Origin: Candidatus Bathyarchaeota archaeon
GTDB lineage: Archaea > Thermoproteota > Bathyarchaeia > Bathyarchaeales > Bathycorpusculaceae
Direction: 5' to 3'
Assembly: GCA_963780185.1 (NCBI GenBank)
Contig: CAWABA010000001.1
Span: 192,001-256,000 of the forward strand
DNA: 64,000 nucleotides
Below the pieces are notes generated by a model. That model ran no database searches, was not told where the DNA came from, and saw nothing but the letters and a program-made list of their open reading frames with translations. Shown in pieces: positions 9,655 through 30,509 of the stretch (its first letter is position 1; each line of letters starts with the position of its first letter). The translations under genes and the position numbers were made by a program.

Positions 9655-10445
9655 TGTCATCCCAAATAACTAAAGTTAGACTAAAGCAAATTGAAGGGCT
9701 TCTTGAAAAAGGAAAACGCCTAGACGAACGAGGCTTACGCGACACCCGAGAAATCAAAATCGAGCAAGGTTTAATTGAACGCGCTGAAGGCTCCGCAAGA
9801 TGCCTACTCGGCAGATCTGAGGTTTTGGCAGGCGTAAAAGTTGAACTTGGCGAACCGTTCCCAGATACACCTAACGACGGAGTAATGACCGTTAACGCTG
9901 AACTTGTTCCGTTGGCTTCACCGAACTTTGAGCCTGGACCACCAGATGAAAACTCGATTGAGCTTGCAAGAGTTGTTGACCGAGGCATCAGAGAATCACA
10001 TGCAATCGACACTGAGAAACTATGCATCGAACCAGGCAAGAAAGTGTTCGTTGTTTTCGTTGACGTTTACGTGCTAAACCACGATGGAAACCTGATTGAC
10101 TGTGCCGCTTTGGCTGCAATGTCTGCGTTAATGAACACAAAGATGCCGAATTACGAAGTCAAAGACGGCGAAGTAAAGATGAAGCAAGGCTACACCCCGC
10201 TACCTATGAAAAGCCACCCCATAACCGTCACTATCGGCAAGATAAACAACGTTTTGATTGTTGACCCATGGCTTGAAGAAGAAAAGGTAATGGATTCCCG
10301 AATCACAATTGCAATCAACGACGAAGGTCAAATATGCGCATGCCAGAAGGGAGGCTCAGGATACTTTTCACCGCAACAGATTTTAGAAGCATCAAAGATT
10401 GCTCAGGAGAAAGCAGTCGAATTACGCAAGAAGCTTGATTGGTGA
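9654..10445 (+). CDS. rrp42: Exosome subunit Rrp42
   Basis: AEGSA, PFPDTP, FEPGPPDE, ELARVVDRGIRES, HDGNLID. Confidence 0.96.
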   Translation: MSSQITKVRLKQIEGLLEKGKRLDERGLRDTREIKIEQGLIERAEGSARCLLGRSEVLAGVKVELGEPFPDTPNDGVMTVNAELVPLASPNFEPGPPDENSIELARVVDRGIRESHAIDTEKLCIEPGKKVFVVFVDVYVLNHDGNLIDCAALAAMSALMNTKMPNYEVKDGEVKMKQGYTPLPMKSHPITVTIGKINNVLIVDPWLEEEKVMDSRITIAINDEGQICACQKGGSGYFSPQQILEASKIAQEKAVELRKKLDW

Positions 10446-10786
10446 AAAAAGTGCCAAAAACAAAGAAAGTCGGTCCAACAAGAGGTTTAGGACCACGTTA
10501 CGGTGCCACAGTTAGGAAACGCTATATCAAAGTCGTCACTGAACTCAAAAAACCCCACAAATGCCCAAACTGCGGCTTCGTACGGGTACACCGCGAAAGC
10601 GTCGGCATATGGAAATGCGGCAAATGCGAATACACTTACTCAGGCGGAGCATACACTCCACTAACAAAGCTGGGTGTCGTAGCGAGACGTGCAGCTAAAG
10701 GTTTACCAGTAGAGCAAGTAACCAAAGAAGCAGAGAAAGCCTCAACAGCAGCCGCCGAACCAGCAACCGAAGAAAAAACCGACTAA
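10439..10786 (+). CDS. rpl37ae: 50S ribosomal protein L37ae (eL43)
   Basis: GPRYGATVRK, CPNC…GIWKCGKC, GGAYTP. Confidence 0.95.
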   Translation: MVKKVPKTKKVGPTRGLGPRYGATVRKRYIKVVTELKKPHKCPNCGFVRVHRESVGIWKCGKCEYTYSGGAYTPLTKLGVVARRAAKGLPVEQVTKEAEKASTAAAEPATEEKTD

Positions 10787-10917
10787 AACCTTCTTCAATT
10801 TTAGTTTTTCTTTAAAACAATCTTTTTATTTCATCTACCGTTTTAAGAAATAACCCTTTTCGTTAATCGATTCTTTTTTTGCTTGACGCAAGTAAGATGC
10901 GCTCTTGAAAACATATA

Positions 10918-11549
10918 TTGGCAAACCGACAAAGGACTATGGTACAAGTCTATTTGACGGAGAACCCAAATATGTCGCATAAAGGAGAAGCGTATTCAGC
11001 GTCAGGAGCCATCTTTTTAGACAATCCGATCAGGCGGTGGCTTCAACCCCCCTCTGAACTTATCGAAATGCTTGCCATCAACCCAAGCGATGCCGTGATG
11101 GATTTTGGCTGCGGACCAGGATTTTTCACGGTTGCCAGCTAGCACAGAGAGCCAAAAGCGTGGTGGCAGTTGACCTTTCACCCGAGATGTTAAAGAAAGC
11201 CCAAAACAAGGCAGCTAAGGCAGGCGTGAAAAATATTGAGTTTTTGCAAAGCGATGGTACAAAAATTGAGCTTGAGGATGGCTTAGTTGACTTGATTCTT
11301 CTTGTAACGGTTTTTCATGAGGTTGGGGAAAGCCAAAAGGTTTTAGCGGAGTTCCGCAGGATTCTAAAGCCCGCGGGTAAACTTGCCATCGTGGAAGTTG
11401 TAAAGAAAGGCATCTTTCCGGTCGCTCCAGTCCAAAACCCGGAGGCTTTGAAAGCTGAAGTTGAAGCAGGCGACTTCAAACTGAAGCAGATGAACCGTTA
11501 CAAAAGCTACGGCGTTTTTTTCTTTACCAAAAACATCACTCCTTCATAA
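10918..11549 (+). CDS. Class I SAM-dependent methyltransferase (split by an indel near 11135)
   Basis: First piece has motif I VMDFGCGPG. Second piece has VAVDLSPEML and RILKPAG. Confidence 0.8.
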
Positions 11550-11620
11550 AAGAGCAAGCTTAGATAGCATTAGCTAATCCTGGGCAATTAGTCGAGTAAA
11601 AGAAATAGAATGGGCGTGCT

Positions 11621-12692
11621 TTAGATGCCGAGGCTGTTGATTACTCTGCCCGAGTTGGCGTCGATGACGAGCACGATTTTGTTGCCTTTGTGGTCGAACT
11701 TTGAGAACCATACGGGCGCGTGAAGCAACTCTACGTCGCCGACGTCTGAGTCAGTGTGTATTGATTGAATCATGTGGTATTTTGCGTGTGCCTTCTGTGA
11801 CTGAAGCTGGTCAACAAGGGTTTTCGCTTGGGATTTGGCTACGTCTTCGCTGATGTCGCCGTTCAAGATTTTAACGTCTTTGGGGAGCTTGGAAATATCA
11901 AACAGTTCTCTGCCTTCTAGGTTGAATTGGTATTCGCGGGGCTGATAATCCGTGAGAGCTTTAAGCGCAATAACTGGGAAATTGTAGTTCATATCCATCT
12001 GCTCGGACTTCCTCATTCCGCCGCCGTAACCCATCCCCATCCCATGCCCCAAAGCCATAATTCTTATTCGCTTAAGTCCAAGGATGCCGGCAAACGGGTT
12101 GCCCATTGATTGGCCTGGATACGCGCGTCTTCCTCCCATTCCGCCTCCTCGTCTTCCTCCGCCTCCTCCGAAACCTCCGCCCATGCCGCCGAAAATTACA
12201 CCCATCAACGCTGCGGTTGTGGCTGTCTGTGCAATCTGTGCGGTTTCATCTGCTGCGACGATGCTTGTTCTGGCTGAAACGCTTACAATCCAGTAAGGCA
12301 CAAACGTTAGGCTCATTTCCTCTTGCGTGGAGTCTTCATGAAGGTGCCTGTGTAGCAGACCCTTATTCATCATAGGCGTGATTATCGAATTCACTTGGTC
12401 AACCGTGGCAACCTTCAAGCGCAAGCATGGTTGATTTTTGAATGTTGGTCCACCCTTGGCTTCCCAAAGTGACTCCGGTGCCGCAGTACTCGCAGGTGAT
12501 AACCATCTCTCCAAATTTGGGCGCGATTGGCGCTCCGCAACTGGGGCATTTCAGGGATTCGACTCCTGAAGGTGCAATAACGGGTCCAGCTGACGCCGTT
12601 GGCTTAACAGTATTTAATCCTGTGCTTGTTCCACATTTAACGCAGAATGCGGCGTCATCTGGAAGTTGAGTACCACAATTATGACAATACAC
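11621..12692 (-). CDS. Multi zinc-ribbon protein with Gly-rich insert (split by an indel near 12420)
   Basis: MYCHNCG…FCVKCG and CPSCG…CEYCG, joined to a frame with FVPYW, a GGG-rich loop and HAPVW…IDANSG. Confidence 0.7.
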
Positions 12693-12857
12693 TCTTTTTC
12701 CACCGACTCTCTAAATAAATCTCCTTTCTCTTAAATTTACCTCAAAAAACTTCCTTTATTAAGCTGTTTATCAAGTTTTTCTGCGAAGAAGAATAATTTC
12801 GTTTGCACACTGCTTTTTGGGAAAAAACTAAATACCTGACCATAATACTCATGTTCC

Positions 12858-13562
12858 ATGGCTTTCAAAAAGAAGGGTGTAAATAAAAAGATAGTTTTCG
12901 CGGTTATTCTGCTGGCTGTGATAGCGGTTGGGGTTGTTGCAGCTGTGGTTTATTCAAATCCAAAGCATACTGGCGGCATCGGCGGAGTAACAGTAGGGGT
13001 TCATGTTGGTGACACGTTCACATACACATGACTGGGCAGTTGTTCAGGTCACTGTTCCAAACTCAATTAATCCAGGTTTCTATCAACTTAACGAAACACA
13101 ATCCTACAAAGTAACTATCGAAGCTATTCACGGCGACTCAGTCACGCTTGAAACAGACTGGGTACTCCAAAACGGAACCGACGTCTCTAAGCAGCAAACA
13201 GTCAATTTATCTGACGGATACAAGTCCGATGAATACGGGTTTTTCTTTTCTTTACCCTTCTGACATCAAAGTAGATGACACGATTTATCCCCACATGGAG
13301 CAGTCAATTCCTGTTAATGCAACAATCACTCAGTACATATGGTACCAGCAGTAGGGAAAGCGCCAATTACCAAGTAAGTACTACCCAAGAGCTCTACACA
13401 AGACCCGACACAAAGCACAGAATGTTACTCGTTCGACCAAATTGGTTTGACAGGCAAACAGGAATGCTCACTACCTTTAGCGAAATACAACAGTACAACA
13501 ATCCAGAGCTAGAAGTTGAAGTCATTTACAATCTTATAAGCTCAACAGCTTGGAACGTTTAA
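12858..13562 (+). CDS. Secreted or membrane-anchored hypothetical protein (several indels)
   Basis: ATG at 12858 gives MAFKKKG, a hydrophobic helix and VGVHVGDTFTY. It continues through overlapping ORF pieces to FDRQTGML…TAWNV*. Confidence 0.55.
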
Positions 13563-14028
13563 ACACCTTACCCAAACTTATTTTCTCTGCTTTTTACCCA
13601 AGTTGCCAGTTCTCCGACTGCTTTAACATGGTTCTTCGTTCCCCGCCCACAAAGAAAGTCTTGTTGAGCTCTCAGATGGTAAAAATGGCTGTCGTCGCGC
13701 TATCCATGCTCCCCTGTTGACGAGGGTTCCGCGTGCTCGGACAAGAGAAAAACAATGCCATATTTAGCTACCTGCCAGCATTCGTTCCAATTATTTGTGT
13801 TTGCTTGTGCAGCTTATTTCCTGGATTCAATAGATGATTCCAAATAATCCTGTGGATGAGCCAATTATACTGAGGTGGCGGGCGACATACCATCGTTCAG
13901 CGGCGAGTTTTTTGGTTGATTCAGATTTAATTAAGCAAAAGATTTGAGTCTGCAGCAACCAAAATGGGTAAGAAAGCGAAAAAATGAAATAGCTAACGCT
14001 CAAACAAGATACTGCAGAGGCGAGTGTA

Positions 14029-14796
14029 TTGTCTTTCAGCGTAAAAATGCAGGAAGCAGCCAAAAGCAAAGGTTCACGAATCGTTTTAGCTTTAGATTTT
14101 CCCTTTGAATCTCCGGATAACCGAGACAAAATTTTGGCTAAAGCTCAAAGCATCCTCAAAGCAGTTCACCCCTACATTTGCGCAGTCAAGATAAATCATC
14201 ACCTTGTTCTTCCACTCGGCACTTTCGACGGCGTGCAGCAGCTTGTGGAGAGAATCCGTGGGCAAGGATTGATGACGATTATGGATGCGAAAGTCAACGA
14301 TATAGGCGCCACTAACCAGACCATCGCGCAATACTATTTTGCAGCGGGTTTTGATGCGTTGATTGCGAATCCCTTCATAGGTTGGGAAGAAGGCTTAAAA
14401 CCGCTCTTTGATGTTTCCCAGAGGCTTAACCGCGGAATGATACTTCTTTGCTACATGAGCCACAGAGGCGCAGGCGAAGGCTACGGGCAAACCATAATCG
14501 ACCCTGAAACAGGCGAGAAAATCTTGCAGTACCTTTCCTTTGCAAGAAAAGCCGTAAAGTACGGTGCGGACGGGGTTGTGGTCGGCGCAACTTACCCGCA
14601 AAGAATAACTGAGGTCAAACAGGTTGTAGGCGAAAAAGTAGCCATTTATTCCCCAGGCGTAGGTGCTCAGGGCGGCTCTGCGGAAACCGCTCTTAAATCA
14701 GGTGCAAACTACCTTATCGTCGGAAGAGAAATTACTCTTGCGGTTGACCCTGCTAAAGCGGCAAGCGAACTTTTGGATTCAATAAACGGGGTTTAG
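14029..14796 (+). CDS. pyrF: Orotidine-5'-phosphate decarboxylase
   Basis: LALD, AVK, DAKVNDIGAT, VVGATYP, SPGVGAQGG, IVGR. Confidence 0.95.
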   Translation: MSFSVKMQEAAKSKGSRIVLALDFPFESPDNRDKILAKAQSILKAVHPYICAVKINHHLVLPLGTFDGVQQLVERIRGQGLMTIMDAKVNDIGATNQTIAQYYFAAGFDALIANPFIGWEEGLKPLFDVSQRLNRGMILLCYMSHRGAGEGYGQTIIDPETGEKILQYLSFARKAVKYGADGVVVGATYPQRITEVKQVVGEKVAIYSPGVGAQGGSAETALKSGANYLIVGREITLAVDPAKAASELLDSINGV

Positions 14797-14802
14797 GCGG
14801 CT

Positions 14803-14958
14803 TTATCTTCCGCGTTTGTTCTCCCAAAGCTCTTTCTTGAGTAGGTCACGCACTGATGACCTTATGACGCTGCTTCTGCTCGGGTACATGTTCGCTCGGA
14901 CTAGTTCATCTAAGCCTTCCAGATATGCTTCTGGCAACAGGACTGTTACAAGTTTCAC
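14803..14958 (-). CDS. Ribbon-helix-helix (CopG/Arc/MetJ) regulator, CdrS-like; not in the ORF track
   Basis: Hand-translated GTG-start 51 aa: MKLVTVLLPEAYLEGLDELVRANMYPSRSSVIRSSVRDLLKKELWENKRGR. SD-like GAGGGAGG upstream. Confidence 0.85.
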   Translation of the reverse strand: MKLVTVLLPEAYLEGLDELVRANMYPSRSSVIRSSVRDLLKKELWENKRGR

Positions 14959-15146
14959 TTTTTTTTCCTCCCTCAATATATTATGCTTATAACATGCTCC
15001 GCATATAAGAGCTTAACCAGCAACCCCTAACTGCTCCGCAACCCTTTGATGCAAAATGTATCCACGTTTATTGCTTTTCGACCTCGCTTCCGACTGTTTC
15101 TTTATGATTTGATTCCTTCCCAAAATAAGGCGACTCCTATGCGGCG

Positions 15147-15989
15147 TTAAAGTTTCCTAAGCTGGTTTAACGTTCCAAGATAGGTCCCGTCTAGGAGGTA
15201 AAGCTCAGAGTTATCTACGTCCACGGCTTCCGAACGCAACACGGGTCCAATCAAGGATTCGTTGCCGATTTCTTTTCGCGGTTTAGTTTCGTTCACTGGT
15301 CTGCCGCCCAAAAAATCGTTGAAGCTGGGCATTATGAAAATTTCTTTTGCCTTCAGCTTGACCCCATAGTGTTTGTGCAGGGTTTCGGCGACCGTGCCCT
15401 CGATTTTTACTTTGTGCTTTTGCAGAAGAATCTTTCCCAGCGCTTCTGTGTCGCACGTTGCCCGCATCCAGGCTTGCCTTGTAATTTTGAAGCCTGCTGG
15501 GTCACGGAAGACGACGACGGGGTGCAGGTGCCCCATAACTAAGGTTTTGCAGCCGAGCAGGGCGGGAGACGGCCATTTGTGCCCGTGAAAGATACCTACG
15601 TCGCCGATTGCGACTCCTGTAGCGGGTAGCAGCTTGATGTTTTCTGGCAGAAGAGGCTCGATGTTTGCGTCGTGGTTTCCGCGGACAACCGCTATGTCGC
15701 CGATGAGGCTTTGCAGTTTGGTGAAGAAGTCGGGTACGTCATGCCACTCGCCCAGTTGGCTTTTGACAACCGTGTACTTCACGTCGCCGACGATAACCAG
15801 CTGCTGCGGCTTATACTTGCAAAGGATGGCCGTGAGCTTGTTGAGGATTTTGGGTGTTTGGCTTGGAACATGGATGCCTTTTTCCTGAAGCTCCATCTCC
15901 CACCCAATGTGGGGGTCAGCGATTAGAAGAGTCTTGACGCTTCCCGTTTTCACCATTGCCGCGGGGCTGGGCCAAAGCAAACTTAACAT
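15147..15989 (-). CDS. Calcineurin-like metallophosphoesterase (ICC-like)
   Basis: ADPHIG, VGD, RGNHD, FHGH, GHLHP, MPSFN. Confidence 0.88.
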   Translation of the reverse strand: MLSLLWPSPAAMVKTGSVKTLLIADPHIGWEMELQEKGIHVPSQTPKILNKLTAILCKYKPQQLVIVGDVKYTVVKSQLGEWHDVPDFFTKLQSLIGDIAVVRGNHDANIEPLLPENIKLLPATGVAIGDVGIFHGHKWPSPALLGCKTLVMGHLHPVVVFRDPAGFKITRQAWMRATCDTEALGKILLQKHKVKIEGTVAETLHKHYGVKLKAKEIFIMPSFNDFLGGRPVNETKPRKEIGNESLIGPVLRSEAVDVDNSELYLLDGTYLGTLNQLRKL

Positions 15990-16819
15990 GACGGTTTAAC
16001 CAAGCTTAAGATTTTTTTGTGAATTTGGAGGTTCCCAGAAGCGACAAAACTAAGTGTTCGCTTTGGATCCAATTCAACATTTACTTCTTTGTTCTCGGGC
16101 GACGTGATTGTTCCGTCTGCTTCCTTTATTATAAGAAAGCCCGCCGCGACGTCGGTTGTGCGCAGTTTCCCGCGCAGGTCAACAAACGCGTCTGTTGAAC
16201 CGTCAGCCACGTAGCAGAGCTCAAGGGCGTTGGCGCCGAAATGGCGGATATGCTTGGTTTTACCAATAAGCGCGGTTACTTTTGGGGCAACCTCTTTGAC
16301 TTTGTAAGTGTTCAAATCTAAACCGATCAACGCCTCATCCAGCGTGGTGGTTTTTGACGGCGTAATTTTCTTTCCGTCGCGAAATGCGCCTTTGCCCCTG
16401 AAAGCTGTGTACGTCACGTCGTGGAAGAGGTCGGCAACCATCCCTGCGTAAACCTCCGCAAGCCACGGCTTATCCGAAACCGCAACAGAGCAAGCGTAGA
16501 AGGGTAAGCCATGCATGAAATTGGTGCTTCCGTCAACCGGGTCAACCGTCACAAAACACTCCTCAGCCGACGACCCGAACTTTTTTACCCCCGACTCCTC
16601 GCTGATTAACGTAAACGAAACGCTGTGCTGGTTTAGGGTGTCGATGATTGCTTTTTCTGCGGCTAAATCCATCGGCTTCATCGCGTCGCCGCCCGCGCCT
16701 ACGCCCAGGTTAGGCTGCGTTTCTTTGGTGGTTTTGACGCATGGCGCTATGTTTTTCTGCACGTTTGTTTTGCATTCGAGAAGGATTTGTTGCCAGTCGT
16801 TCTGTTTTTGCGTTTTCAT
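15983..16819 (-). CDS. suhB: Inositol monophosphatase / fructose-1,6-bisphosphatase (FIG family)
   Basis: GAGGD, ISEESG, VDPVDGSTNF, DVAAG. Confidence 0.9.
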   Translation of the reverse strand: MKTQKQNDWQQILLECKTNVQKNIAPCVKTTKETQPNLGVGAGGDAMKPMDLAAEKAIIDTLNQHSVSFTLISEESGVKKFGSSAEECFVTVDPVDGSTNFMHGLPFYACSVAVSDKPWLAEVYAGMVADLFHDVTYTAFRGKGAFRDGKKITPSKTTTLDEALIGLDLNTYKVKEVAPKVTALIGKTKHIRHFGANALELCYVADGSTDAFVDLRGKLRTTDVAAGFLIIKEADGTITSPENKEVNVELDPKRTLSFVASGNLQIHKKILSLVKPSC

Positions 16820-16916
16820 TGCGGTTCTTCCTGCTTGTTGTTATAGATTGGACAAGTTGATAAATGCTATACCCCGCTTTCGGCGGCTGAAAGGCGGTTA
16901 ACCTGCAGTCTAAATC

Positions 16917-16932
16917 CGAAACGCTTATATTT
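16917..16932 (+). promoter_or_regulatory. BRE/TATA promoter of the aromatic leader and operon
   Basis: CGAAACGC-TTATATTT, ~40 nt upstream of the leader ATG. Confidence 0.6.
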
Positions 16933-16969
16933 TCTGGTTTATGACTCATTGAGCAGGTTCGAAGCTTCA

Positions 16970-17053
16970 ATGTCTAATCTCGCAAACAAAAAAGCAAACG
17001 TTGCATCATGGTTCCAGAGCTTCGACTACTTTTATTATAGTTATTTTCCTTAA
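16970..17053 (+). CDS. Putative aromatic-amino-acid leader peptide (27 aa)
   Basis: MSNLANKKANVASWFQSFDYFYYSYFP*. 9 of the last 14 codons are Trp/Phe/Tyr (1 W, 4 F, 4 Y). It lies directly upstream of the aromatic biosynthesis operon. Confidence 0.75.
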   Translation: MSNLANKKANVASWFQSFDYFYYSYFP

Positions 17054-17091
17054 GCCCAGAACTCAGAAAATTTTTTAGTGAAGTTCTGGGC
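17054..17091 (+). promoter_or_regulatory. Hairpin immediately after the leader stop (candidate attenuator)
   Basis: GCCCAGAACT (17054-63) pairs perfectly with AGTTCTGGGC (17082-91). A T6 tract lies in the loop (17071-76). Confidence 0.7.
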
Positions 17092-17109
17092 AAAGCACGG
17101 GTGTAGCAA

Positions 17110-18357
17110 ATGGAAAAAACTGGCTCTAAAAAAACGATTGTTGTTAAATTCGGCGGTTCTAGCCTAGCCGATCACGAGAGACTCTTAAAAGCGGTGGTTG
17201 CCGTGGTTAACGAAGCCAAGAAGGGTACGCGGGTCGCCGTGGTTGTGTCGGCTATGGGTAAAACTACTGATGTCCTTATGACGACTGCGAAGAACGCTTC
17301 TAACGGGAAACTCGACAAGAAAGACCTTGACGACATCCTCTCGATGGGCGAGCGGACCAGCATCAGAATCTTCTCCACGGCTCTGCGAACCAACGGAGCA
17401 GAATCCTGCTACTTTGACCCAATCGACAGCAACTGGCCAATAATCACCGACTCAGCATTCCAAAACGCCAACCCCATCCTCAAAGACTGCGAAAAAAATA
17501 TTCGCGAATGCGTGCTGCCAATCATGGAAAAAGGCGTCATCCCTGTTGTGGCGGGTTTTTTGGGTAAAACCAAAGACGGCAAAATCACGACTTTGGGAAG
17601 AGGCGGAAGCGACACCACCGCGTTCGTCTTAGCTGAGGCGCTTGGAGCCGACGAAATCGTGTTGGTAACCGACGCCGACGGCATAATGTCCGCTGACCCG
17701 AAGCTTCTTTCTAACGTTTTGCGCCTCAAAGAAGTCGACGTTAACACGTTGGTGGGGCTTGCCGATTCAGGAGCCAAATTCATCCACAGCAAAGCGTTAA
17801 AGTACAAGCCTAAAAACATCAACGTCCGCGTCATCAACCACGCACACGGCGACCTCTCCGAGGAAGGCACCTTAGTCACAGGCGGATTAGCCACGGAGCT
17901 TGACGCTGAAATCGCACATCCGTTTCCCGTCGCCGAAATCACCGTGATAGGCAACGGCATATCAGCTAACCCACAAATCATCCAGGAAATGGCGGAGAAA
18001 ACCAAGCGACACTCGCAGCTTTTAGGCATGTCAATGAACTCGAACTCCGCTATTCTTTACGTGTCTCAAGAAAAGAATTTAGACGGCCTCTTCAACGACG
18101 TTCACAACATAGTAAAGAGCAACAAGGAAACGATTGCGATGGCAGTCAAAAAAGACCTTGTTTTCATACAAACAAGCGGTGTCGGCTTAGAGGAAACCCA
18201 CGGCATCATCGGAAAAATCAGCGAAGACCTGCGGGTCAGCGGCATAAACATTTCAGGCATACTAACCATAACCTCTAGCATCCTGCTCTTTATGGATTGG
18301 AGTGAACGGGAAAAAGCCCTAAAACTGATTAAAAACTCTTTAAGGAGCGCTAAGTAA
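17110..18357 (+). CDS. lysC: Aspartate kinase
   Basis: VVKFGGSS, VVSAMG, TTLGRGGSDTTA, TDADGIMSADP, C-terminal ACT domains. Confidence 0.93.
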   Translation: MEKTGSKKTIVVKFGGSSLADHERLLKAVVAVVNEAKKGTRVAVVVSAMGKTTDVLMTTAKNASNGKLDKKDLDDILSMGERTSIRIFSTALRTNGAESCYFDPIDSNWPIITDSAFQNANPILKDCEKNIRECVLPIMEKGVIPVVAGFLGKTKDGKITTLGRGGSDTTAFVLAEALGADEIVLVTDADGIMSADPKLLSNVLRLKEVDVNTLVGLADSGAKFIHSKALKYKPKNINVRVINHAHGDLSEEGTLVTGGLATELDAEIAHPFPVAEITVIGNGISANPQIIQEMAEKTKRHSQLLGMSMNSNSAILYVSQEKNLDGLFNDVHNIVKSNKETIAMAVKKDLVFIQTSGVGLEETHGIIGKISEDLRVSGINISGILTITSSILLFMDWSEREKALKLIKNSLRSAK

Positions 18358-18366
18358 GGTGAAAAT

Positions 18367-19159
18367 ATGAATCAAGGAAAAACTCGAAGACTAAGAAGAA
18401 TCCTGCAGCAAGACAACCGAACAGTAATTGTCCCCATGGACCACGGCGTAACCGTCGGACCCATCCAAGGCTTAGCTAACATGCAGCAGACAATCAACAT
18501 GCTCATCAAAGGTGGAGTCGACGCAGTTCTCGTCCACAAAGGCATCGCAAGGCACACTGACGCTGGAAACGCAGGGTTAATCGTTATGCTTTCAGGCATG
18601 TCAAACCTTGAGCCCGAACGTCAACGGCAAAGTCCAAGTCTGCAGCGTCCAAGAAGCCATACGGCTTGGGGCAGACGCTGTTTCAGTGCATGTTAACATC
18701 GGAGCGCAGGATGAGGATAAAATGCTTCAAAACCTCGGCAGCGTAGCCGACGAATGTGACGTTTACGGTATGCCGCTTCTTGCAATGATGTATCCTCGGG
18801 GACCCAAAATACAGAATGAACACGCAGCCGACGTTGTCGCTCATGCCGCACGCATCGGCGCTGAACTTGGCGCAGACATCATCAAAGCAAACTTTACAGG
18901 AAACACAGAAACATTCAGAACCGTAGTGGAAAGCTGCCCCGTACCCGTTGTGATTGCGGGGGGACCAAAATGCAAAACCTCCGAAGAGGTCCTCCAAACT
19001 ACATACGACGCCATTTCAGCTGGAGCAGCGGGTCTCTCAATCGGACGCAACGTCTTCCAACATGAAAACCCAACCCTAATCGTCAAGGCGCTGTCAGCAA
19101 TCGTTCACGGCGGCGTTAGCGTGCAGGAAGCGCTCAAGATTCTCGGTGAAAAAACGTGA
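18367..19159 (+). CDS. 2-amino-3,7-dideoxy-D-threo-hept-6-ulosonate (ADH) synthase, class I aldolase (indel near 18608)
   Basis: [36 protein letters not shown]. Adjacent to DHQ synthase II. Confidence 0.88.
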
Positions 19160-20199
19160 AGGAACTTTGGGTAGAGATTGAGCAGGCGGCTTCACCGCAA
19201 GAAAAAGAAAACTTGCTTAGCTCCGCGCATGAAAACGCCGATGTGGTTCTCGAAGGAACCCAAGCCAGCACCCGCAGCGGCAAACTCGACATAGCCTTCC
19301 TCGCCGAGCTGTCCGAGAAAAAGATTTCTCAAGCTAAAAATGAAGGCAGAAAAACCGCCGTTAAAATCAGCATAAAAGGCAAGGAAGACGAGAACCAAGC
19401 TGCCAAAGCGGCTGAGCTGGGCGTGGATTACATTATTATTAACACGTTTGATTGGCGCGTTATCCCGCTGGAGAACTTGATTGCGAAGGCACACGGCGGC
19501 AAAAGCAAACTCATCGCCGAAGTTGCCACGGCGCAGGATGCCAAGGTGGTTCTTGAAGCCTTAGAGTTGGGAACAGACGGCGTTCTGCTTAAAACCTCAA
19601 ACCCCACTGAGCTTGCCAACACGGTTAAACTGGTTAAAGGGCAAATGCCAAAGGTCGCGTTGACAGTGGCGAAGGTTCTCTCAATCCAACCCATCGGCAC
19701 AGGCGCCAGAGTCTGCGTGGACACGGTTGATTTGATGGTTCCAGGCGAAGGAATGCTTGTCGGTTGCCAATCTGCAGGGTTCTTTTTGGTGGAAGCTGAA
19801 GTAAACGAGAACCCGTACGTGCAGTCTAGGCCTTTCCGAGTGAACGCTGGACCAGCCTCGCACTACACGTTAACGTCGCTTCAGAGCACCAGGTACCTGT
19901 CTGAACTTAAGGCTGGGGACGAAGTTTTAATCATCAACAGGGAAGGCAAAGTAAGAATAACCAACGTAGGTCGATCAAAAATCGAGTTCCGACCCCTCAT
20001 CCTAATTGAAGCGCAAGCGGACGACACAAAAATCAAAACGATATTGCAAAACGCGGAAACCATCCGCCTCGTCACGCCGAAAGCCTCTAAACCCGTCACG
20101 GAACTAAAAGTAAACGACGAGGTTTTGGTGCATTTGGCTGCGAAAGGGGGTAGACACTTCGGCGTTTCTGTGCCTGAAGAAACGGTGATTGAGAAGTGA
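19156..20199 (+). CDS. 3-dehydroquinate synthase II (archaeal)
   Basis: [43 protein letters not shown]. Confidence 0.93.
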
Positions 20200-20879
20200 C
20201 CATGAGAATCTGCGTTTCAATTCTTCCAAAAAACATCGCTGAAGCGTTAAACCTCATCAAAAAGGCAGAAGAATCCGAAGCAGACCTAATCGAAGTCAGG
20301 CTAGACCGCCTCGAAAAAAATAGTAACCTAGGCGAACTTGCCAAAGCCACAAAGCTTCCCTTAATCGCGACAAACAAACTTGCAAGAGAAAAAGGTTTTT
20401 TTGCTGGTTCGGAAGCCGAGCGGCAACAAATCCTCTTGAGTGCCGCTGAAAACGGGTTCGAATACGTTGACGTTGACCTATCAAACCCAAACAACAAAGA
20501 AATAATCGATAAAATCAAAAAGTTGGGTTCAAAACCAATAGTTTCCTACCACAATTCTGAAGACGCCTTAAACGTTTCCGAAATGGAAAAAATCCTCCAC
20601 CAAGAGATTTCGTGCGGTGCCAGCGTCTGCAAAATCATAGTCACAGCCAAAACAACCGAAGATAACTTGACGGCGCTCAATTTCGTGGCTTCTCATTCTG
20701 GTGAGGCGAAGCTTGTTTGTTTCTGCATGAGCGAGGCGGGCAAGGTTTCGCGGCTTCTTTCTCCGATGTTCGGCGCGTTCTTCACGTTTGCGTCGCTGGA
20801 GCAGGGCGACGAAACGGCGAAGGGGCAGATGTCGATTGGCGAAATGAAAGTTGCATACGACCTTTTGGGGGCAACGTGA
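20196..20879 (+). CDS. aroD: Type I 3-dehydroquinate dehydratase
   Basis: IEVRLD, VSYHN, CKI, FCM…GKVSRL, GQ. Confidence 0.9.
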   Translation: MTMRICVSILPKNIAEALNLIKKAEESEADLIEVRLDRLEKNSNLGELAKATKLPLIATNKLAREKGFFAGSEAERQQILLSAAENGFEYVDVDLSNPNNKEIIDKIKKLGSKPIVSYHNSEDALNVSEMEKILHQEISCGASVCKIIVTAKTTEDNLTALNFVASHSGEAKLVCFCMSEAGKVSRLLSPMFGAFFTFASLEQGDETAKGQMSIGEMKVAYDLLGAT

Positions 20880-21745
20880 TGGCGGTTTCAGGTAAAACCA
20901 AAGTTTTCGGAGTAATCGGCGACCCCATAGAGCACAGCCTAAGCCCAGTCATGCAGAACGCGGCGTTTGAAGCCTCCAAACTTGACTGCGCATTCTTGCC
21001 ATTTAAAGTCGAATCTTCACAGCTTGGCAAAGCCATAGACGGCATGCGAGCCTTAGATATCCAGGGATTAAACGTTACCATGCCCCACAAAACCGCAATC
21101 CTGAGTTTCCTAGACGAAGTTGACACGACCGCCAAGGTCCTAAAAGCAGTTAACACGGTGAAAAATGAGGACGGCAAACTGTTAGGCTTCAACACTGACG
21201 GCGCAGGCGCAATGTCGGCGCTAAGAGAAAACGGCGTGGATCTTAGAGGCAAAAAAGTGATGTTGCTAGGCGCAGGCGGAGCTGCTAGAGCCATAGGTTT
21301 CGCGGTTGCGGCGCAGGCGGATGAGCTTTCAATATTGAATCGGTCAATTCAACCAGCAGCCGAGTTAGCAGACATCGTACATCAAAAGTTCAACAGCAAA
21401 GTCTTTGCATATGCGCTTTCCCCATTGACAATTCGGGGAGTTCTAGTTGATGCTGACTTGCTAATTAACGCCACTTCAGTCGGGATGAAACCAAACGCCG
21501 CCAAAACCCTAGTGCCCTCTGAATGGCTCAAACCCGATTTGGCAGTAATGGACATCGTTTACGACCCGCTTGAAACCAAGCTGGCGAGAAACGCGAAGGC
21601 TGCAGGAGCCAAAGTGGTCAGCGGAGTTGAAATGCTGATTTATCAGGGGGCGGCGTCGTTTGAAATCTGGACTGGCAAAAAAGCGCCAGTTGAAGTTATG
21701 AGGAAGGCAGCGCTTAACCATTTGCAAAAGGTGCAGAAGAGATGA
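20879..21745 (+). CDS. aroE: Shikimate dehydrogenase
   Basis: GDPIEHSLSP, NVTMPHK, AVNT, NTDG, GAGGAA, MLIYQG. Confidence 0.95.
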   Translation: MAVSGKTKVFGVIGDPIEHSLSPVMQNAAFEASKLDCAFLPFKVESSQLGKAIDGMRALDIQGLNVTMPHKTAILSFLDEVDTTAKVLKAVNTVKNEDGKLLGFNTDGAGAMSALRENGVDLRGKKVMLLGAGGAARAIGFAVAAQADELSILNRSIQPAAELADIVHQKFNSKVFAYALSPLTIRGVLVDADLLINATSVGMKPNAAKTLVPSEWLKPDLAVMDIVYDPLETKLARNAKAAGAKVVSGVEMLIYQGAASFEIWTGKKAPVEVMRKAALNHLQKVQKR

Positions 21746-22611
21746 CTGGGCAAGCAACGGCTATAGCGCATGGAGCAGCAACGATTGTTAACGCTATGGC
21801 TCTTGGCAAAGGCGCCGCTTTCGGAGTTGACCTATACACGAAGGCTCAGGTAAAATTAACTGACGAACCCGAAGTCGTTAAGGCGGAGATTGCTTCTGAC
21901 CCCCAAGAAAGCACCGTTCTGATGGAGAAAACCGTCACGCGGGTTCTTAGCCATTTCAAAGTGGAAAAGAGGTTTGGCGCCAAAGTTAAAACTTGGTCCA
22001 CCATCCCCATCGCTAAAGGGCTCAAAAGCAGCAGTGCCGCGGCGAACGCGGTGGCGTTGGCGACCACGGCGGCGCTGGGAGAGATGGTGGATGATTTTAA
22101 AATCGTCAATTTAGGCGTAGACGCTGCTTTCGATGCGAAAGTCACGGTGACAGGAGCTTTTGACGATGCATGTGCTTCATATTTCGGCGGTGTAGTTGTC
22201 ACAGACAATTTGGAACGCAAAATCGTAATGCAAACGTCGTCACCTGATGATTTTGTGGTGCTTTTCCATGTTCCTCCGCAAAAAGCCTATTCAGGCGACT
22301 CGAACGTTGACAGGCTCAGAGTGGTGAAGCCGCTGGTTCAAGTTGCCTATGATGAAGCTTTAGCTGGCGATTTTTGGGGCGCTTTGACGCTTAACGGTTT
22401 AATTTACTCTTCCGCTTCGGGGTTCGACCCTTCGATTGCAATTGATGCGTTGGCGGCTGGAGCGGTTGGAGCTGGGCTCTGCGGCAAAGGACCCGCGGTC
22501 ACTGCAGTTGTGCCTGAAGATAAGGTTGATTCGGTGAGGGCGGCTTTTCAAAAATTCGGCGGTGAAGTCTTGCAAGCACGCCTTAACCATGAGAAAGCAA
22601 AGGTGATTTAG
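21742..22611 (+). CDS. aroK: Archaeal shikimate kinase (GHMP family)
   Basis: GAATIVNA, IPIAKGLKSSSAAANA, TGAFDDA. Confidence 0.93.
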   Translation: MTGQATAIAHGAATIVNAMALGKGAAFGVDLYTKAQVKLTDEPEVVKAEIASDPQESTVLMEKTVTRVLSHFKVEKRFGAKVKTWSTIPIAKGLKSSSAAANAVALATTAALGEMVDDFKIVNLGVDAAFDAKVTVTGAFDDACASYFGGVVVTDNLERKIVMQTSSPDDFVVLFHVPPQKAYSGDSNVDRLRVVKPLVQVAYDEALAGDFWGALTLNGLIYSSASGFDPSIAIDALAAGAVGAGLCGKGPAVTAVVPEDKVDSVRAAFQKFGGEVLQARLNHEKAKVI

Positions 22612-22613
22612 CT

Positions 22614-23918
22614 ATGGTGGATGTAATCGTTAAAAAATCTGAAAAACTAAGCGGCGAAGTATGCGCTCCCCCATCAAAATCGTATACTCAGCGAATGCTT
22701 ATTGCGGCGGCTCTTTCCAATGGATCTGGAAAGGTGTCAAATCCCCTTCTTTCTGAAGACACAGAAGCAGCCCTGCGTGCCATAACGGCGTTAGGCGCTG
22801 AAACAAGCTTTGAAGAAAACTGCTGGGTCGTCAAAGGCGCGGCTTCAATTCAAAATGCGAAATCACCAATCGACTGCGGAGAATCTGGAGCTACCCTCCG
22901 TTTCATGGTGCCCGTCGCAGCCCTCGCTAGTGACCCCTCTACGCTGTTTTTCCGCGGCTCTCTTGATCGCAGACCAATTGAACCCTTAATCAAAAGTCTC
23001 GACGATTTGGGCGCAAAGGTTCATCTCAAAAAGTTCGGCGACAAAGACGCCGTGGTTGTTGAAGGCGGCGGAATCCTCGGAGGACAAACCTTAATTCGCG
23101 GCGACGTCAGTTCACAGTTCATCTCGGGGCTGATGTTTGCGTGTCCGATGGCGAAAGTTGACACCGAAATTATTTTAACGTCGCCGCTTGAGTCAACTAA
23201 CTACGCAAAAATGACTTGGGATGTACTTTCAAGACACGGCGTCAAAGTAGACGTTTACGGCAACTTCGAACGCATTGTAATCCCAGCCAACCAAGCCTTC
23301 AAGCCGGCTGATAGCCGAGTACCAGGCGACTTCTCATCAGCCGCATTTCTCCTCGCAGCCGCAGCCATCACCAACTCCAAAGTGCAGGTAAACGACCTTG
23401 ACCGCGAGAGCATTCAAGGCGACAAAGCCATTCTGGGCATTCTAAAGCAGATGGGTGTAGCGGGCAAAGTTTGTGACAACAGCGTTGAAATAGACGGCGT
23501 TGGCGGTCCGCTTGTTCCGCTTAATCTTGATGCAAAAAACATTCCTGACCTTGTCCCAGTATGCGCAGCTCTGGCATGCTTCGCTGAAGGCACATCAAAA
23601 ATAACTGGCGCGCAAAGGCTTAGGCTCAAAGAGTCCGACAGGCTGAAATCCCTTCATACTGAATTCAAAAAGATGGGCGGCAAAATAGAATTTGACTCGG
23701 ACAGCCTAACCATAACAGGCACTTCTAATCTGCACGGCGCTACAGTTAACTCCCATAATGACCATCGAATCGCGATGGCTTGCGCGGTTGCAGCTCTATG
23801 CGCTGAGAAACAAACTGTAATTCAAAACGCTCAGTGCGTCAGAAAGTCTTATCCGCAGTTCTTCCTTCATCTCAAACAGTTAGGAGCGGAAATTGTTGGC
23901 GGGAAATTCGACAGGTAA
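22614..23918 (+). CDS. aroA: EPSP synthase
   Basis: PPSKSYTQR, GESGATLRF, SSQFISG, LRLKESDRL, DHRIAMA, KSYPQF. Confidence 0.96.
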   Translation: MVDVIVKKSEKLSGEVCAPPSKSYTQRMLIAAALSNGSGKVSNPLLSEDTEAALRAITALGAETSFEENCWVVKGAASIQNAKSPIDCGESGATLRFMVPVAALASDPSTLFFRGSLDRRPIEPLIKSLDDLGAKVHLKKFGDKDAVVVEGGGILGGQTLIRGDVSSQFISGLMFACPMAKVDTEIILTSPLESTNYAKMTWDVLSRHGVKVDVYGNFERIVIPANQAFKPADSRVPGDFSSAAFLLAAAAITNSKVQVNDLDRESIQGDKAILGILKQMGVAGKVCDNSVEIDGVGGPLVPLNLDAKNIPDLVPVCAALACFAEGTSKITGAQRLRLKESDRLKSLHTEFKKMGGKIEFDSDSLTITGTSNLHGATVNSHNDHRIAMACAVAALCAEKQTVIQNAQCVRKSYPQFFLHLKQLGAEIVGGKFDR

Positions 23919-25012
23919 AGAATTCGTATTCACCACTTTCGGCGAAAGCCACGGCAAAATCGTAGGCGTAGTTGTGGACGGTTGCCCAGCAGGCTTGCCC
24001 CTGTCTGAAGCAGACATCCAAGCCGAACTGGACAGACGCATCCCCGCAGACTCCAAAATCGTTTCTGCAAGAATCGAAAAAGACGTGCCCAAAATTTTGT
24101 CAGGCGTCTTCAACGGCTACACCACGGGTGCTCCCATAGCCGTGACGGTTGAGAACAGGGAGGTTGACTCGGCGGATTACGAAGCAATCAAGAATCTGCC
24201 AAGACCCGGACACGCAGACTACCCCGCAGGCGTCAAGTACGGCGGCTTTAACGATTATCGAGGCGGCGGACGGTTCAGCGGCAGGGTTACAGTGGCGATA
24301 ATAATGGCTGGCGCCATCGCCAAGAAGCTGCTAAGCCACTTCGACGTTGACGTTTTAGCTTACACAAGAGCCATAGGCAAAATCAGAAGCGACAAAAAAT
24401 TCAGCACCGAAGAAATCCAAAAGAACCGCTACGCGGCGGCGACTCGGTGCCCAGACCTGTCCTGCGCCGAAAAAATGGAGCAAGCCATCGTTGAAGCCCG
24501 AGAAGAAGGCGAAAGCGTCGGCGGCGTAGTTGAATGCATCGCCCTGAACGTTCCAGTAGGGGTTGGCGAGCCAATGTTTGATTCGCTTGACGCTGACTTA
24601 GCTAAGGCGCTGTTTAATGTTCCCGCTGTAAAAGCGGTTGAGTTCGGCTTAGGCTTCGCTGTTGCCGATTTAAAAGGCTCAGAAAGCAACGACGCCTACG
24701 TCATGCAAAACGGCAAAGTTACAAGCTTCAACAGATAACATGGGCGGAATCTTAGGCGGCATATCCAACGGCATGCCAATCCAAATTCGGGCAGCAATCA
24801 AACCAACGCCCTCCATCAGCCTGCCGCAGAAAACCGTTAACTTGTCCACTATGGAAAACGCTTCTGTAACCGTTAAGGGCAGGCATGACCCGTGTGTGGT
24901 TCCGAAAGCCGTTCCCGCAGTGGAAGCCGCCGTTGCAGTAACGTTAGCTGACCACATGATTCGTGCTGGTTTCATACCGAAAGTTTTGGAGAGAAAGAAA
25001 ATTGTTGGATGA
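23896..25012 (+). CDS. aroC: Chorismate synthase (indel near 24725-24740)
   Basis: TFGESHG, RPGHAD, GGGRFSGR. Second piece has GGILGGISNG and GRHDPCVVP. Confidence 0.93.
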
Positions 25013-25265
25013 ACTTGAACGCTACAGAAAACGGGTCGACGAAGTTGACGAATTGATTCTGAAGGCATTAACTGAAAGAGTCAAGATATGCATGGCTATT
25101 GGTTTGGTGAAGAAAAAACGGGGCATGGAAGTCAAGGATGCTTCCAGAGAAAAAGACGTTTACAAAAAAGTTAAAGAGAAATCTGCCGAATTATGCTTAG
25201 ATCCCCAGAAAGTTGAGGCAGTTTACCGCGAAATAGTTAATATGTGCAGTGCAGTTCAAGAATAA
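25005..25265 (+). CDS. Chorismate mutase (AroQ type II)
   Basis: LERYRKRVDEVDELILKALTER…IGLVKK…DASREK. Confidence 0.88.
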   Translation: MDELERYRKRVDEVDELILKALTERVKICMAIGLVKKKRGMEVKDASREKDVYKKVKEKSAELCLDPQKVEAVYREIVNMCSAVQE

Positions 25266-25295
25266 GAAATAATCTGAAAAGGAAAGTTTACGGCA

Positions 25296-26375
25296 ATGCT
25301 CTACGAAATAAACGAGAAAGCCATAAGACTCGAAAACCAAGGAAAGAAAATTATCCGCTTAAACCTAGGTGACCCTGACCTGGCGACGCCAACGGAGATT
25401 GTGGAAGCCGCGTACGCTGCTATGAAGGCGGGGAAAACAAAGTATTCTTCAGCTTATGGCGAGGAAAAACTAAGGCAGAAACTCGCGAAGATTCATGGAG
25501 TTAAAGCAGAAAACGTGGTTATTACGCCTGGTTCCAAATGGGGCGTCTTCGCGACGCTTTATTTGACGATGAAGGCTGGAGGCAACATCATCATACCCAC
25601 GCCTTACTGGACAGCTTACGATTTGATGGCTAAAAGCATCGGTGCCCAAACAAGGCTGCTTCGAACCGAAATGGAAGACGGCTGGAAAGTTGATTTGGGC
25701 AAGCTTGAAGCCATGATTGACAAAGACACAAAGATGATAATTCTCAATAACCCGAATAATCCAACCAGCAAAGTCATGGATGCAAAAACCTTAGACGGCA
25801 TAGTGGAAATCGCCAACAAAAAAGGCGTAACCATCCTCTCAGACGAAGTTTACGGTCCAATCAGCTTCGTAAAAACAAAAAGCATCCTTGAATACGACGG
25901 CAACAACACTCACATCCTGTCAAACGGCTTCTCCAAAATGTTCACTATGACGGGCTGGCGAATCGGCTACATCATAGCCAACAAGCCGCTAATCGACAAC
26001 ATCACAAAACTAAACCAAATCACCATAAACAACGTGCCAGTCTTCATACAGGAAGCAGCTTTGAAAGGGCTTGAAATGCAGAAAAGCCTGACCAACAGCA
26101 TCGAGAAAGAATATCAAGAACGAGCAAAAATGGCGTGTGCAACCCTCACGAAAGCGGGGCTTTCCTTCACCGAGCCTGAAGCACCCTTCTACGTGTTCCC
26201 TAAACGTAAAGGCTTAGACTCCGAAAAATTCACTTTAGACCTGCTTGACAAAGGCGTCGCAGTTGCTCCAGGAACATCTTTCGGCGACTACAGAGAACAC
26301 TTCCGCATCTCCCTAACTGCCCCCCGAAACGAAATAAAGGTGGGGTTGGAAAAAATCAGCGAGGCGCTCGGATGA
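25296..26375 (+). CDS. Class I/II PLP aminotransferase (probable aromatic aminotransferase)
   Basis: LNLGDPD, NNPNNPT, SDEVY, FSKMFTMTGWRIG. Operon context. Confidence 0.9.
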   Translation: MLYEINEKAIRLENQGKKIIRLNLGDPDLATPTEIVEAAYAAMKAGKTKYSSAYGEEKLRQKLAKIHGVKAENVVITPGSKWGVFATLYLTMKAGGNIIIPTPYWTAYDLMAKSIGAQTRLLRTEMEDGWKVDLGKLEAMIDKDTKMIILNNPNNPTSKVMDAKTLDGIVEIANKKGVTILSDEVYGPISFVKTKSILEYDGNNTHILSNGFSKMFTMTGWRIGYIIANKPLIDNITKLNQITINNVPVFIQEAALKGLEMQKSLTNSIEKEYQERAKMACATLTKAGLSFTEPEAPFYVFPKRKGLDSEKFTLDLLDKGVAVAPGTSFGDYREHFRISLTAPRNEIKVGLEKISEALG

Positions 26376-30505: not shown

Positions 30506-30509
30506 TTTT

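Follow-up and report, generated by a model that had tools for sequence, protein, structure and literature searches.

A candidate aromatic leader peptide with a stop-abutting hairpin ahead of the aromatic amino acid operon of Bathyarchaeota

We analyzed a window of 64,000 nucleotides from a Candidatus Bathyarchaeota archaeon (contig CAWABA010000001.1, positions 192,001 to 256,000; coordinates below count from the first base of the window), in which a short upstream open reading frame (uORF) dense in Phe, Tyr and Trp codons, followed at once by a hairpin, separates an archaeal promoter from the first gene of an aromatic amino acid operon. The anatomy of this leader, its conservation, the coding constraint on the uORF and the geometry of stop codon and hairpin can be read directly from the genomes compared here. 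Judging from these comparisons, the uORF probably encodes a translated leader peptide that serves as a ribosome-stalling sensor of charged Phe- and Tyr-tRNA, and partly of Trp-tRNA, for an operon making their common precursor.

The leader and the operon behind it contain the following features:

16917–16932, + strand: promoter CCGAAACGCTTATATT, made of a CCGAAAC resembling a transcription factor B recognition element (BRE) and a TATA-like GCTTATATT; identified by sequence and genus conservation
16955–16958, + strand: Shine-Dalgarno (SD)-like tetramer AGGU of the uORF, adjoining the helix arm that follows
16959–16966, + strand: 5' untranslated region (UTR) arm TCGAAGCT/UCGAAGCU of a long-range helix, just 5' of the uORF start
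16970–17053, + strand: leader uORF MSNLANKKANVASWFQSFDYFYYSYFP, ATG at 16970, 27 codons plus TAA (17051–17053)
17009–17047, + strand: aromatic codon cluster W14–F26, in which 9 of 13 codons specify Trp, Phe or Tyr, with one Pro codon before the stop
17018–17025, + strand: 3' arm AGCTTCGA/AGCUUCGA of the 5'-UTR helix, codons Ser17-Phe18-Asp19, with 8 nt of complementarity to 16959–16966
17054–17091, + strand: stop-abutting hairpin with a perfect 10-bp stem, GCCCAGAACT (17054–17063) pairing with AGTTCTGGGC (17082–17091)
17099–17103, + strand: SD-like GGGUG of the aspartate kinase gene, conserved in the alignment and complementary to the 16S rRNA 3' end
17110–18357, + strand: aspartate kinase paralogue, first gene of the operon (Pfam AA_kinase; TIGR00657, 265.7 bits against a cut-off of 208.7)
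18367–27247, + strand: rest of the operon, from 2-amino-3,7-dideoxy-D-threo-hept-6-ulosonate (ADH) synthase to prephenate dehydrogenase (Pfam and TIGR profiles, ORF order)

The uORF opens with 13 residues of which none is aromatic, and nine of its last 14 are (W14, F15, F18, Y20, F21, Y22, Y23, Y25 and F26). The stem behind it encloses an 18-nt loop holding A4 and then T6 (17071–17076), the T6 lying 17 nt past the uORF stop, and the hairpin's free energy (dG) of -20.2 kcal/mol corresponds to z = -3.9 against 100 dinucleotide shuffles. It has no U tail: the 3' flank reads AAAGCACG, the stem ends (17091) 7 nt short of the kinase SD, and the kinase ATG follows 18 nt past the stem. The 16S rRNA of the source genome ends in ...GGAUCACCUCCU. 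From the usual archaeal promoter spacing, transcription would start at about 16953–16956. The promoter block is near-invariant among same-genus leaders (consensus CCGAAAcGCTTATATT), with the TATA-to-ATG spacing kept, and distant lineages have TATA-like boxes at a comparable distance upstream. A first-pass annotation of this DNA had already described the BRE/TATA element, the 27-codon uORF, the 10-bp stem, the T6, the 18-nt gap and the pairing of 16959–16966 with 17018–17025, and all of these coordinates check out; its placement of the kinase at the head of a shikimate/Tyr operon is borne out by the TIGR00657 match and the aro genes downstream.

Within the source assembly (2.75 Mb, 13 contigs, 93% complete) the uORF has no counterpart. 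Among 3307 ATG-started small ORFs of 8–55 codons that lie outside long ORFs and no more than 200 nt upstream of an ORF of at least 120 codons, it alone has at least 7 Phe, Tyr or Trp residues in a 10-residue window (1/3307). Over the last 12 codons of 90 distinct leaders, whose collection is described below, the mean aromatic fraction is 0.62 in frame, 0.12 in the +1 frame and 0.13 in the +2 frame; the base composition of these tails would give 0.25, and the long ORFs of the source genome stand at 0.09. The tails hold 349 Tyr, 300 Phe and 21 Trp codons, with TAT outnumbering TAC (257 vs 92) and TTT outnumbering TTC (177 vs 123), and the long ORFs of the source genome favour TAC and TTC, a comparison that sets codon usage from one genome beside leaders from many. 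Because the enrichment is frame-specific and the start codon is invariant (52/52 leaders of the window's genus group), aromatic codons arising as a by-product of T-rich DNA, the case that the first-pass annotation had named as fatal to its own reading, are excluded. The uORF is thus clearly under coding constraint.

A kinase orthologue with 70–89% identity occurs in 24/24 same-genus genomes sampled. All 23 same-genus loci (L002–L024; L, g and f numbers are our handles for loci, genera and families) have an ATG-started uORF that ends 45–65 nt before the kinase, whose C-terminus resembles SFDYYFYYYHFP and whose N-terminal half varies, and 43 further loci from a second genome collection follow the same pattern. 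In alignment A2, which holds 52 distinct leaders of the window's genus group, the promoter block, GGTTCGAAGC, the ATG, AGCTTCGAC, the T-rich aromatic codons, GCCCAGAAC, GTTCTGGGC and GGGTG are near-invariant, and about 45 nt after the ATG vary freely. The ORF from the invariant ATG runs into the aromatic block in 51 of the 52 leaders (the exception, L068, has a downstream in-frame ATG), and its frame is kept regardless of its length, which ranges from 24 to 31 codons. In 46 of the 52 it runs exactly up to the stem; in three it overlaps the stem by one base, in one it falls 5 nt short and in one it extends 12 nt into it.

RNAalifold, applied to the same 52 leaders, predicts only two helices: the 10-bp stem after the stop codon, and seven pairs (alignment columns 10–16 with 70–76) that join the 5' UTR to the first aromatic codons. 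Ten cells are changed in the pairs of this 5'-UTR helix, eight of them to G-U wobbles (UG 6, GU 2) and two so as to break a pair, and in our reading of the alignment the Asp-to-Gly and Asp-to-Glu codon changes of relatives in its 3' arm maintain or lengthen the pairing. Variation in the two helices is slight and consists almost entirely of one-sided transitions to G-U, with double changes at two pairs. This within-genus variation is consistent with pairing in + strand RNA, and taken alone it is weak covariation.

The leader also extends far beyond the genus. Wider searches took two more distant genomes as centres and covered 301 genomes of the class and 401 of the phylum, and we read the upstream regions of loci L074–L118 and of 57 further regions. 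A first set comprised 98 loci with a kinase identity of at least 46.5% in the best high-scoring segment pair and at least 150 nt of upstream sequence (L065 and L078 were dropped for lacking it). A uORF with at least 6 aromatic residues in 10 is present in 94 of these 98 orthologue loci, and one with at least 7 in 86, so the conserved aromatic codon clusters that the first-pass annotation had proposed looking for in relatives do exist. The four misses are L028, which is actually a paralogue, L067, whose frameshifted kinase misplaced the anchor, and L079 and L087 (4 each); among 18 loci of the paralogous kinase none reaches 6 in 10 (maximum 4). The 98 loci count some genomes twice, and removal of these duplicates and of L028 and L067 leaves the 90 distinct leaders. 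Of the 57 extra regions, 56 were usable (L131 is cut by a contig end), and 28 of these 56, from other families, have at least 6 aromatic residues in 10. An aromatic uORF ending at a hairpin before the orthologous kinase is thereby found in 36 genus-level groups from many Bathyarchaeia families and neighbouring lineages, distributed as follows:

Leader present: f1 (ten genus groups), f5, f7, f10, f11, f14, f19, f27, f28, f30, f32, f34 and f37
Leader present outside the class (by kinship label): f47 (genus g126), f58 and f62
Leader weak (4–5 aromatic residues in 10): f12, f15, f16, one f37 leader, f11 genera g29 and g49, and f47 genus g143
Leader weak: f66 (5 of 8 residues) and two f17 leaders (5 each)
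Leader not present: f26 and f35 (another conserved uORF-like block), the rest of f17, f52 and f73

C-terminal motifs differ by lineage (SFDYYFYYYHFP, SWQFYSFGYFFYN, FFDFFYYYFYFE, MRFTYYFSGYWFTY, FFGSFGYFGY, YYYYYYYCFF, FGYFYFYYFGP and SW[QRH]FYSF[GS]YFFYN), and some leaders are only 8–14 codons long. What is kept between lineages is composition and position, not peptide sequence.

The uORF-like blocks of f26 and f35 differ from this leader. In f26 (L124, L137–L142) the block behind the TATA box reads ATGGGTGAYC..TCTTTTCGGTGATGGCGTTTAC, that is MGDxLFGDGVY, and in f35 (L133–L136) it reads MGGHLYWH or FGGH[LI]YG..; both lie about 80–120 nt upstream of the kinase, hold one to a few Phe, Tyr or Trp codons and have no stop-abutting hairpin. 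They may represent a second leader type or an RNA motif. One f26 locus (L138, positions 1–168, - strand) also contains a sub-threshold Rfam match to HEARO RNA (42.6 bits against a gathering score of 83, E 3e-06), upstream of the kinase region and cut by the locus end.

The hairpin accompanies the aromatic uORF throughout. Stem sequences are unrelated between families, yet a strong helix starts at the stop codon every time, and this comparison between families offers stronger structural evidence than the variation within the genus; as to the stem covariation for which the first-pass annotation had proposed a test, a hairpin is kept at the stop between families, and inside the genus covariation is weak, by G-U wobble only. 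Measured from the first base past the stop, the minimum free energy (MFE) helix begins at -3 to 0 nt in 87 of the 90 distinct leaders, with a median z of -2.8 against dinucleotide shuffles. In an enlarged set of 122 leaders, formed by the 90 and a further 32 hand-picked among the extra regions for their aromatic uORF, it starts between -3 and +5 in all 122, and the last aromatic codon lies 0–2 codons before the stop in 121. When the first helix starting between -3 and +5 was scored in these leaders and in 600 control small ORFs of the source genome, the counts were as follows:

dG at or below -12: 116/122 leaders, 103/600 control small ORFs
dG at or below -15: 100/122 leaders, 43/600 control small ORFs
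dG at or below -18: 41/122 leaders, 19/600 control small ORFs

A U-rich stretch (at least 4 U in 6) stands at the 3' foot of the stem in 14 of the 36 genus groups: f14, for instance, has a perfect 15-bp stem followed by UUUUU and GGAGG, and genus g16 has CUGGGC, then UUUUU, UUCUU or UUCAU, then GGAGG. The first-pass annotation had concluded from the missing U tail that the element is probably not an intrinsic terminator; the absence holds for the window's genus group (a U-rich foot in 1/56 leaders) and fails for those 14 groups, so that for the leader family taken together a terminator-like output is still plausible. A run of at least 5 U is instead found between the arms in 41 of the 56 leaders of the window's genus group.

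Two local structures in other families deserve mention. In f14 (L119, L120), within the 40 nt that follow the uORF stop, the arms of the 15-bp terminator-like hairpin read AGCUUCGA.. and ..UCGAAGCU; these arms (GCTTCGA/TCGAAGC) are the motif pair of the long-range 5'-UTR helix in the window's genus, which may be chance, given the TTCGAA palindrome, or a rearranged relic. In L159–L163 (f58, f62) the last two uORF codons, the stop and the next bases read GGUCCC-UAA-GGGGACC. By eye, the 5' arm of the large hairpin could there pair instead with the Gly-Pro codons, in 6 bp that enclose the stop codon as a loop; this makes a candidate antiterminator, which would be masked by a ribosome on the stop.

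The operon that follows the leader encodes, in order, the aspartate kinase, ADH synthase, 3-dehydroquinate (DHQ) synthase II, aroD, aroE, a GHMP-type shikimate kinase, 5-enolpyruvylshikimate-3-phosphate (EPSP) synthase, chorismate synthase, an aminotransferase and prephenate dehydrogenase, and is the archaeal aromatic pathway of the 6-deoxy-5-ketofructose 1-phosphate (DKFP) type with tyrA. This pathway consumes aspartate semialdehyde, so it makes metabolic sense for the operon to open with an aspartate kinase of its own; a second, canonical aspartate kinase with 37% identity lies elsewhere in the source genome (contig C7). In all five distant lineages tested the kinase is likewise the first gene of the aro operon. 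The next gene is ADH synthase in the window's genus and in three further lineages; in genus g16 asd stands between the kinase and ADH synthase, and four loci from three families continue with DHQ synthase II and aroD. Upstream, the neighbouring gene (inositol-monophosphatase family, 15983–16819) lies on the opposite strand, and the leader is thus no 3' end of some other transcript. Prephenate dehydratase (Pfam PDT, 28350–28997, - strand) lies outside the leader-preceded operon, and the Phe branch is therefore under other control; it ends a convergent row of minus-strand genes that, by ORF order, begins with acetolactate synthase and leucine-pathway genes.

Several genes in this part of the window are broken. 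ADH synthase is split over two overlapping frames (18367–18696 and 18608–19159), the chorismate synthase ORF (span 23893–25265) matches only profile positions 1–248 of 327, and two split minus-strand ORF pairs (29299–31548) are, we assume from their N-terminal motifs, leuA- and leuB-like. These splits (18367–19159, 23893–25265 and 29299–31548) are probably assembly indel errors rather than real pseudogenes.

From this arrangement we infer that the uORF is translated, that ribosomes stall on it, and in which direction and at which step the operon responds; the comparisons thus support the first-pass proposal of ribosome-stalling control over the whole shikimate/Tyr operon. Transcription would begin about 15 nt upstream of the uORF, and a ribosome would translate it with RNA polymerase still nearby. 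When aromatic aminoacyl-tRNAs are scarce, the ribosome would stall on the Phe or Tyr codons, which extend to 0–2 codons short of the stop. Since the footprint of a ribosome reaches about a dozen nucleotides past its A site, the stalled ribosome would occupy the stop codon and the 5' arm and block the hairpin, a stand-in for the antiterminator segment of bacterial leaders. With a good supply it would finish and depart, and the hairpin would form. The state of the hairpin would then set operon expression, by the favoured route through premature termination or pausing just past the leader. In many lineages the site would be the U-tract that follows the stem; in the window's genus it would be the T6 in the loop, which may also hold the polymerase until the ribosome stalls or leaves. 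Counted from the last sense codon (17048–17050), the T6 ends (17076) after about 27 nt, approximately the minimal ribosome-to-polymerase spacing in bacterial collided expressomes. A ribosome on the last codons would thus sit against a polymerase on the T6, and could keep a termination factor or the hairpin off the nascent RNA. More speculatively, the 5'-UTR helix probably limits or times ribosome loading, by reclosing the uORF initiation region after the first ribosome.

The output step is the least certain part of this model. Premature termination or pausing is the most likely, because many lineages have a hairpin with a U-tract and the window's genus has a T6 of the gene-end type. T runs of at least 6 occur within 60 nt after 17.8% of the 970 long ORFs of the source genome, vs 0.7% inside them, and runs of at least 5 after 29.2%, vs 4.4% inside; T runs after ORFs are the usual archaeal gene-end signal. 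Three papers report that archaeal RNA polymerase responds to oligo-T tracts, a response that hairpins can enhance (PMC13675443), that transcription in Pyrococcus terminates at five to six T residues (PMC2253867), and that aCPSF1 and the U-tract cooperate in archaeal termination (PMC8716108).

The same sensor could instead have a translational output, in which the ribosome unfolds a hairpin lying 1–15 nt upstream of the kinase SD and no premature termination takes place. This arrangement would fit the SD-like motif found within 15 nt past the stem in 24 of the 36 genus groups, the lack of a U-rich foot in 22 of the 36 (the window's genus included), and f47 leaders L165 and L166, in which an MFE stem 6–7 nt past the uORF stop pairs a GGAGGU that we read by eye as the kinase SD. 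We nevertheless consider it unlikely, as the SD of the window stands outside a stem that ends 7 nt before it, and as the modelled accessibility of SD and start codon hardly responds to ribosome position. In this model (a partition function with the ribosome footprint masked at three positions) accessibility was flat in the 20 leaders of genus g16 (0.33 vs 0.28–0.34) and likewise in the window's genus group, whose values are given below; with no consistent change, an SD-masking switch was rejected. An anti-SD role for the pyrimidine-rich 3' arm was also discarded, the feature being present in several families and not in the window's genus.

Two further explanations do without the sensor. The uORF might encode a functional small aromatic-rich protein, such as a regulator or membrane peptide, that is merely co-transcribed, with the hairpin as a stability or processing element; its clear coding constraint would suit this, and trans-acting leader peptides are described for bacteria (PMC7298713). 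Between families, however, no sequence motif survives, only composition and the position of the aromatic residues relative to stop and hairpin; the N-terminal half is free to vary, leaders of 8–14 codons exist, and the strict abutment of stop and hairpin is given no role, all of which makes such a protein improbable. Alternatively, the leader could be untranslated, its TTCGAA near-palindromes (at the transcription start and 60 nt downstream) serving as DNA operators or the RNA binding a protein or metabolite, with the aromatic codons incidental. Archaeal repressors usually act near the transcription start, where the near-palindrome GGTTCGAAGC, almost invariant in the genus, is located. Against this stand the invariant ATG, the kept frame and the frame-specific enrichment, as well as aromatic uORFs that persist in families without these nucleotide blocks; substitutions in the two blocks are mostly transitions, of a kind that preserves G-U pairing in RNA of the + strand alone, and Rfam 15 gave no relevant match for window positions 16000–18000 (E up to 10) or for 17 distant leaders (E up to 0.1). 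We regard an untranslated element as very improbable.

A number of observations nonetheless weigh against the stalling sensor with a terminating output that we prefer. A ribosome that lingers at the stop codon would mask the 5' arm just as a stalled one does; the model therefore requires quick release or a pause of the polymerase, and regulation must rest on dwell time, long for a stalled ribosome and short for a terminating one. No conserved antiterminator-type alternative helix was found in the leaders, bacterial-type hairpin-plus-T sites are not enriched across window positions 10001–30000 (30 vs 28.3 expected), and the accessibility of the kinase ribosome-binding site stays flat with ribosome position (0.42 vs 0.44–0.46 in 51 leaders of the window's genus group). 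Inside that group stem changes are wobble-only, the U-rich foot is all but missing as noted above, and a loop T run of at least 5 is found in only 41/56 leaders, L024 and L064 having no T run there. The uORF has only a short SD, placed 11 nt from its ATG. Kinase orthologues in f26, f35, f52, f73 and most of f17 lack an aromatic leader, and none comparable precedes the trp and his operons of the source genome. Finally, the leaders are phylogenetically related, so that our counts overstate independence and are descriptive only, and the set of 122 includes the 32 chosen for the very feature.

Candidate competitor pairings found by eye (the CUGGGC in the 5' UTR of g16, and GGUCCC-UAA-GGGGACC in f58 and f62) are not consistently conserved; that of the g16 CUGGGC with the 5' arm was rejected because changes in the arm preserve it only in part. 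The 3' arm can also pair with uORF codons CCAGAGCU (17013–17020) in the window and its closest relatives; this was likewise set aside, since it is not conserved in the genus.

A screen of the source genome for rare-residue leader peptides gave no convincing Trp or His leader, and was too noisy for common residues. The trp operon (contig C5, 40000–52000, - strand), which we take from ORF order to run trpE, trpG, trpD, trpC and trpB-like, and whose trpE matches Pfam, has no Trp-rich uORF upstream; the 111-codon ORF that precedes it is presumably CutA-like. A Val-Leu-Ile-Leu uORF before ilvB was rejected as a branched-chain leader, as its C-terminal residues are not conserved and it lies in a nucleotide-conserved block. 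This region (35650–35810, - strand), upstream of an ORF resembling the acetolactate synthase large subunit (start 35647), holds a TATA-like box and then a 40-nt block, AUGAGGGAUCGUCACCUCAAUAGCUGGGAUCGUCGGGUAC, that is almost invariant in its own genome and the 14 matching same-genus genomes (14/15 searched), with variable sequence beyond it. Downstream of the block GAGGG might pair with CCCUC and CUGGG with CCCAG, and the region has the look of a structured cis-regulatory RNA, not of a branched-chain leader peptide.

Among known systems, the leader most resembles the bacterial trp, phe, his, leu, thr and ilv attenuators, with which it shares a short uORF in the 5' leader between promoter and first biosynthetic gene, end-product codons clustered near the stop and conserved while the rest of the peptide drifts, and a stable hairpin between leader and first gene. 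It differs from them in being archaeal, with a BRE/TATA promoter and an archaeal RNA polymerase; in mixing Tyr and Phe codons, with an occasional Trp, where they use one amino acid; and in having a single hairpin at the stop, with no four-segment terminator/antiterminator set recognised and no U tail in the genus. Ribosome occupancy of a 5' arm blocks the regulatory hairpin in terminator occlusion of the pyrBI type and in translational attenuation of the erm/cat type, which have the logic proposed here; those systems are bacterial and sense nucleotides or antibiotics, not aminoacyl-tRNA supply, and the erm/cat hallmark is missing from the window, where the hairpin sequesters neither the kinase SD (17099–17103) nor the start codon. 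The enterobacterial pheL-pheA leader (PMC3082878) also serves an aromatic pathway with runs of Phe codons near the end of a very short ORF; pheL controls a single Phe-branch gene via a classical terminator, whereas the present leader precedes the whole common pathway plus tyrA, has slightly more Tyr than Phe codons, and is followed by an aspartate kinase for the DKFP route. Cognate codon runs are reported to tune operons by stalling, in a minimal design without a classical terminator, in the mycobacterial polycysteine leaderless small ORFs (bioRxiv 10.1101/834739) and the Corynebacterium ilvB uORF (PMC10272879); these are bacterial, and the archaeal leader differs by its short 5' UTR, which carries an SD-like motif, and by a hairpin set strictly against the stop. 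Archaeal termination at U-tracts with aCPSF1 (FttA) (PMC8716108, PMC7515710, PMC13675443) recalls the T6 located 17 nt past the uORF stop, with the difference that this T run lies inside a conserved hairpin ahead of an operon and not at a gene end.

The classical attenuator features present are thus the leader uORF, its cluster of cognate codons and the conservation of that cluster while other positions vary; a hairpin plus U-tract forming an intrinsic terminator before the first gene is missing from the window. As the window lacks a U tail and antiterminator helices are so far candidates, the element would work like an attenuator and should be filed as a variant of the classical family, functionally closest to the bacterial leader-peptide attenuators, especially the enterobacterial Phe leader, and to the terminator-less cognate-codon uORFs of actinobacteria.

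Openly searchable full-text literature, to which our survey was confined (subscription journals and supplements lay outside it), yielded no validated or predicted archaeal leader-peptide attenuator, in agreement with the first-pass statement that no archaeal aro leader of this kind was known. A tool paper states in general terms, citing reviews, that uORFs act in archaea (PMC10219788); the word archaea does not occur in a uORF review, nor the string "attenuat" in a cross-domain termination review. We tentatively suggest that this could be the first amino-acid-sensing leader-peptide attenuator in Archaea, widespread and old in Bathyarchaeota, in which one hairpin, a stalled ribosome as its anti-hairpin and a U-tract or factor-dependent stop would suffice.

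Leader-peptide attenuation is a textbook bacterial mechanism that needs ribosomes on nascent RNA. If our reading is true, archaea use the coupling of transcription and translation for metabolite control as bacteria do, and this conserved candidate is a mutable test object for asking whether that coupling is regulatory in archaea and how a hairpin and a trailing ribosome act on a Pol II-like archaeal polymerase and its termination factors. At least 36 genus-level groups have it, and clear predictions follow from its geometry. More generally, its position shows that these organisms enter the DKFP aromatic pathway through a dedicated aspartate kinase, and the leader offers an annotation marker for small ORFs that gene callers miss in uncultured archaea.

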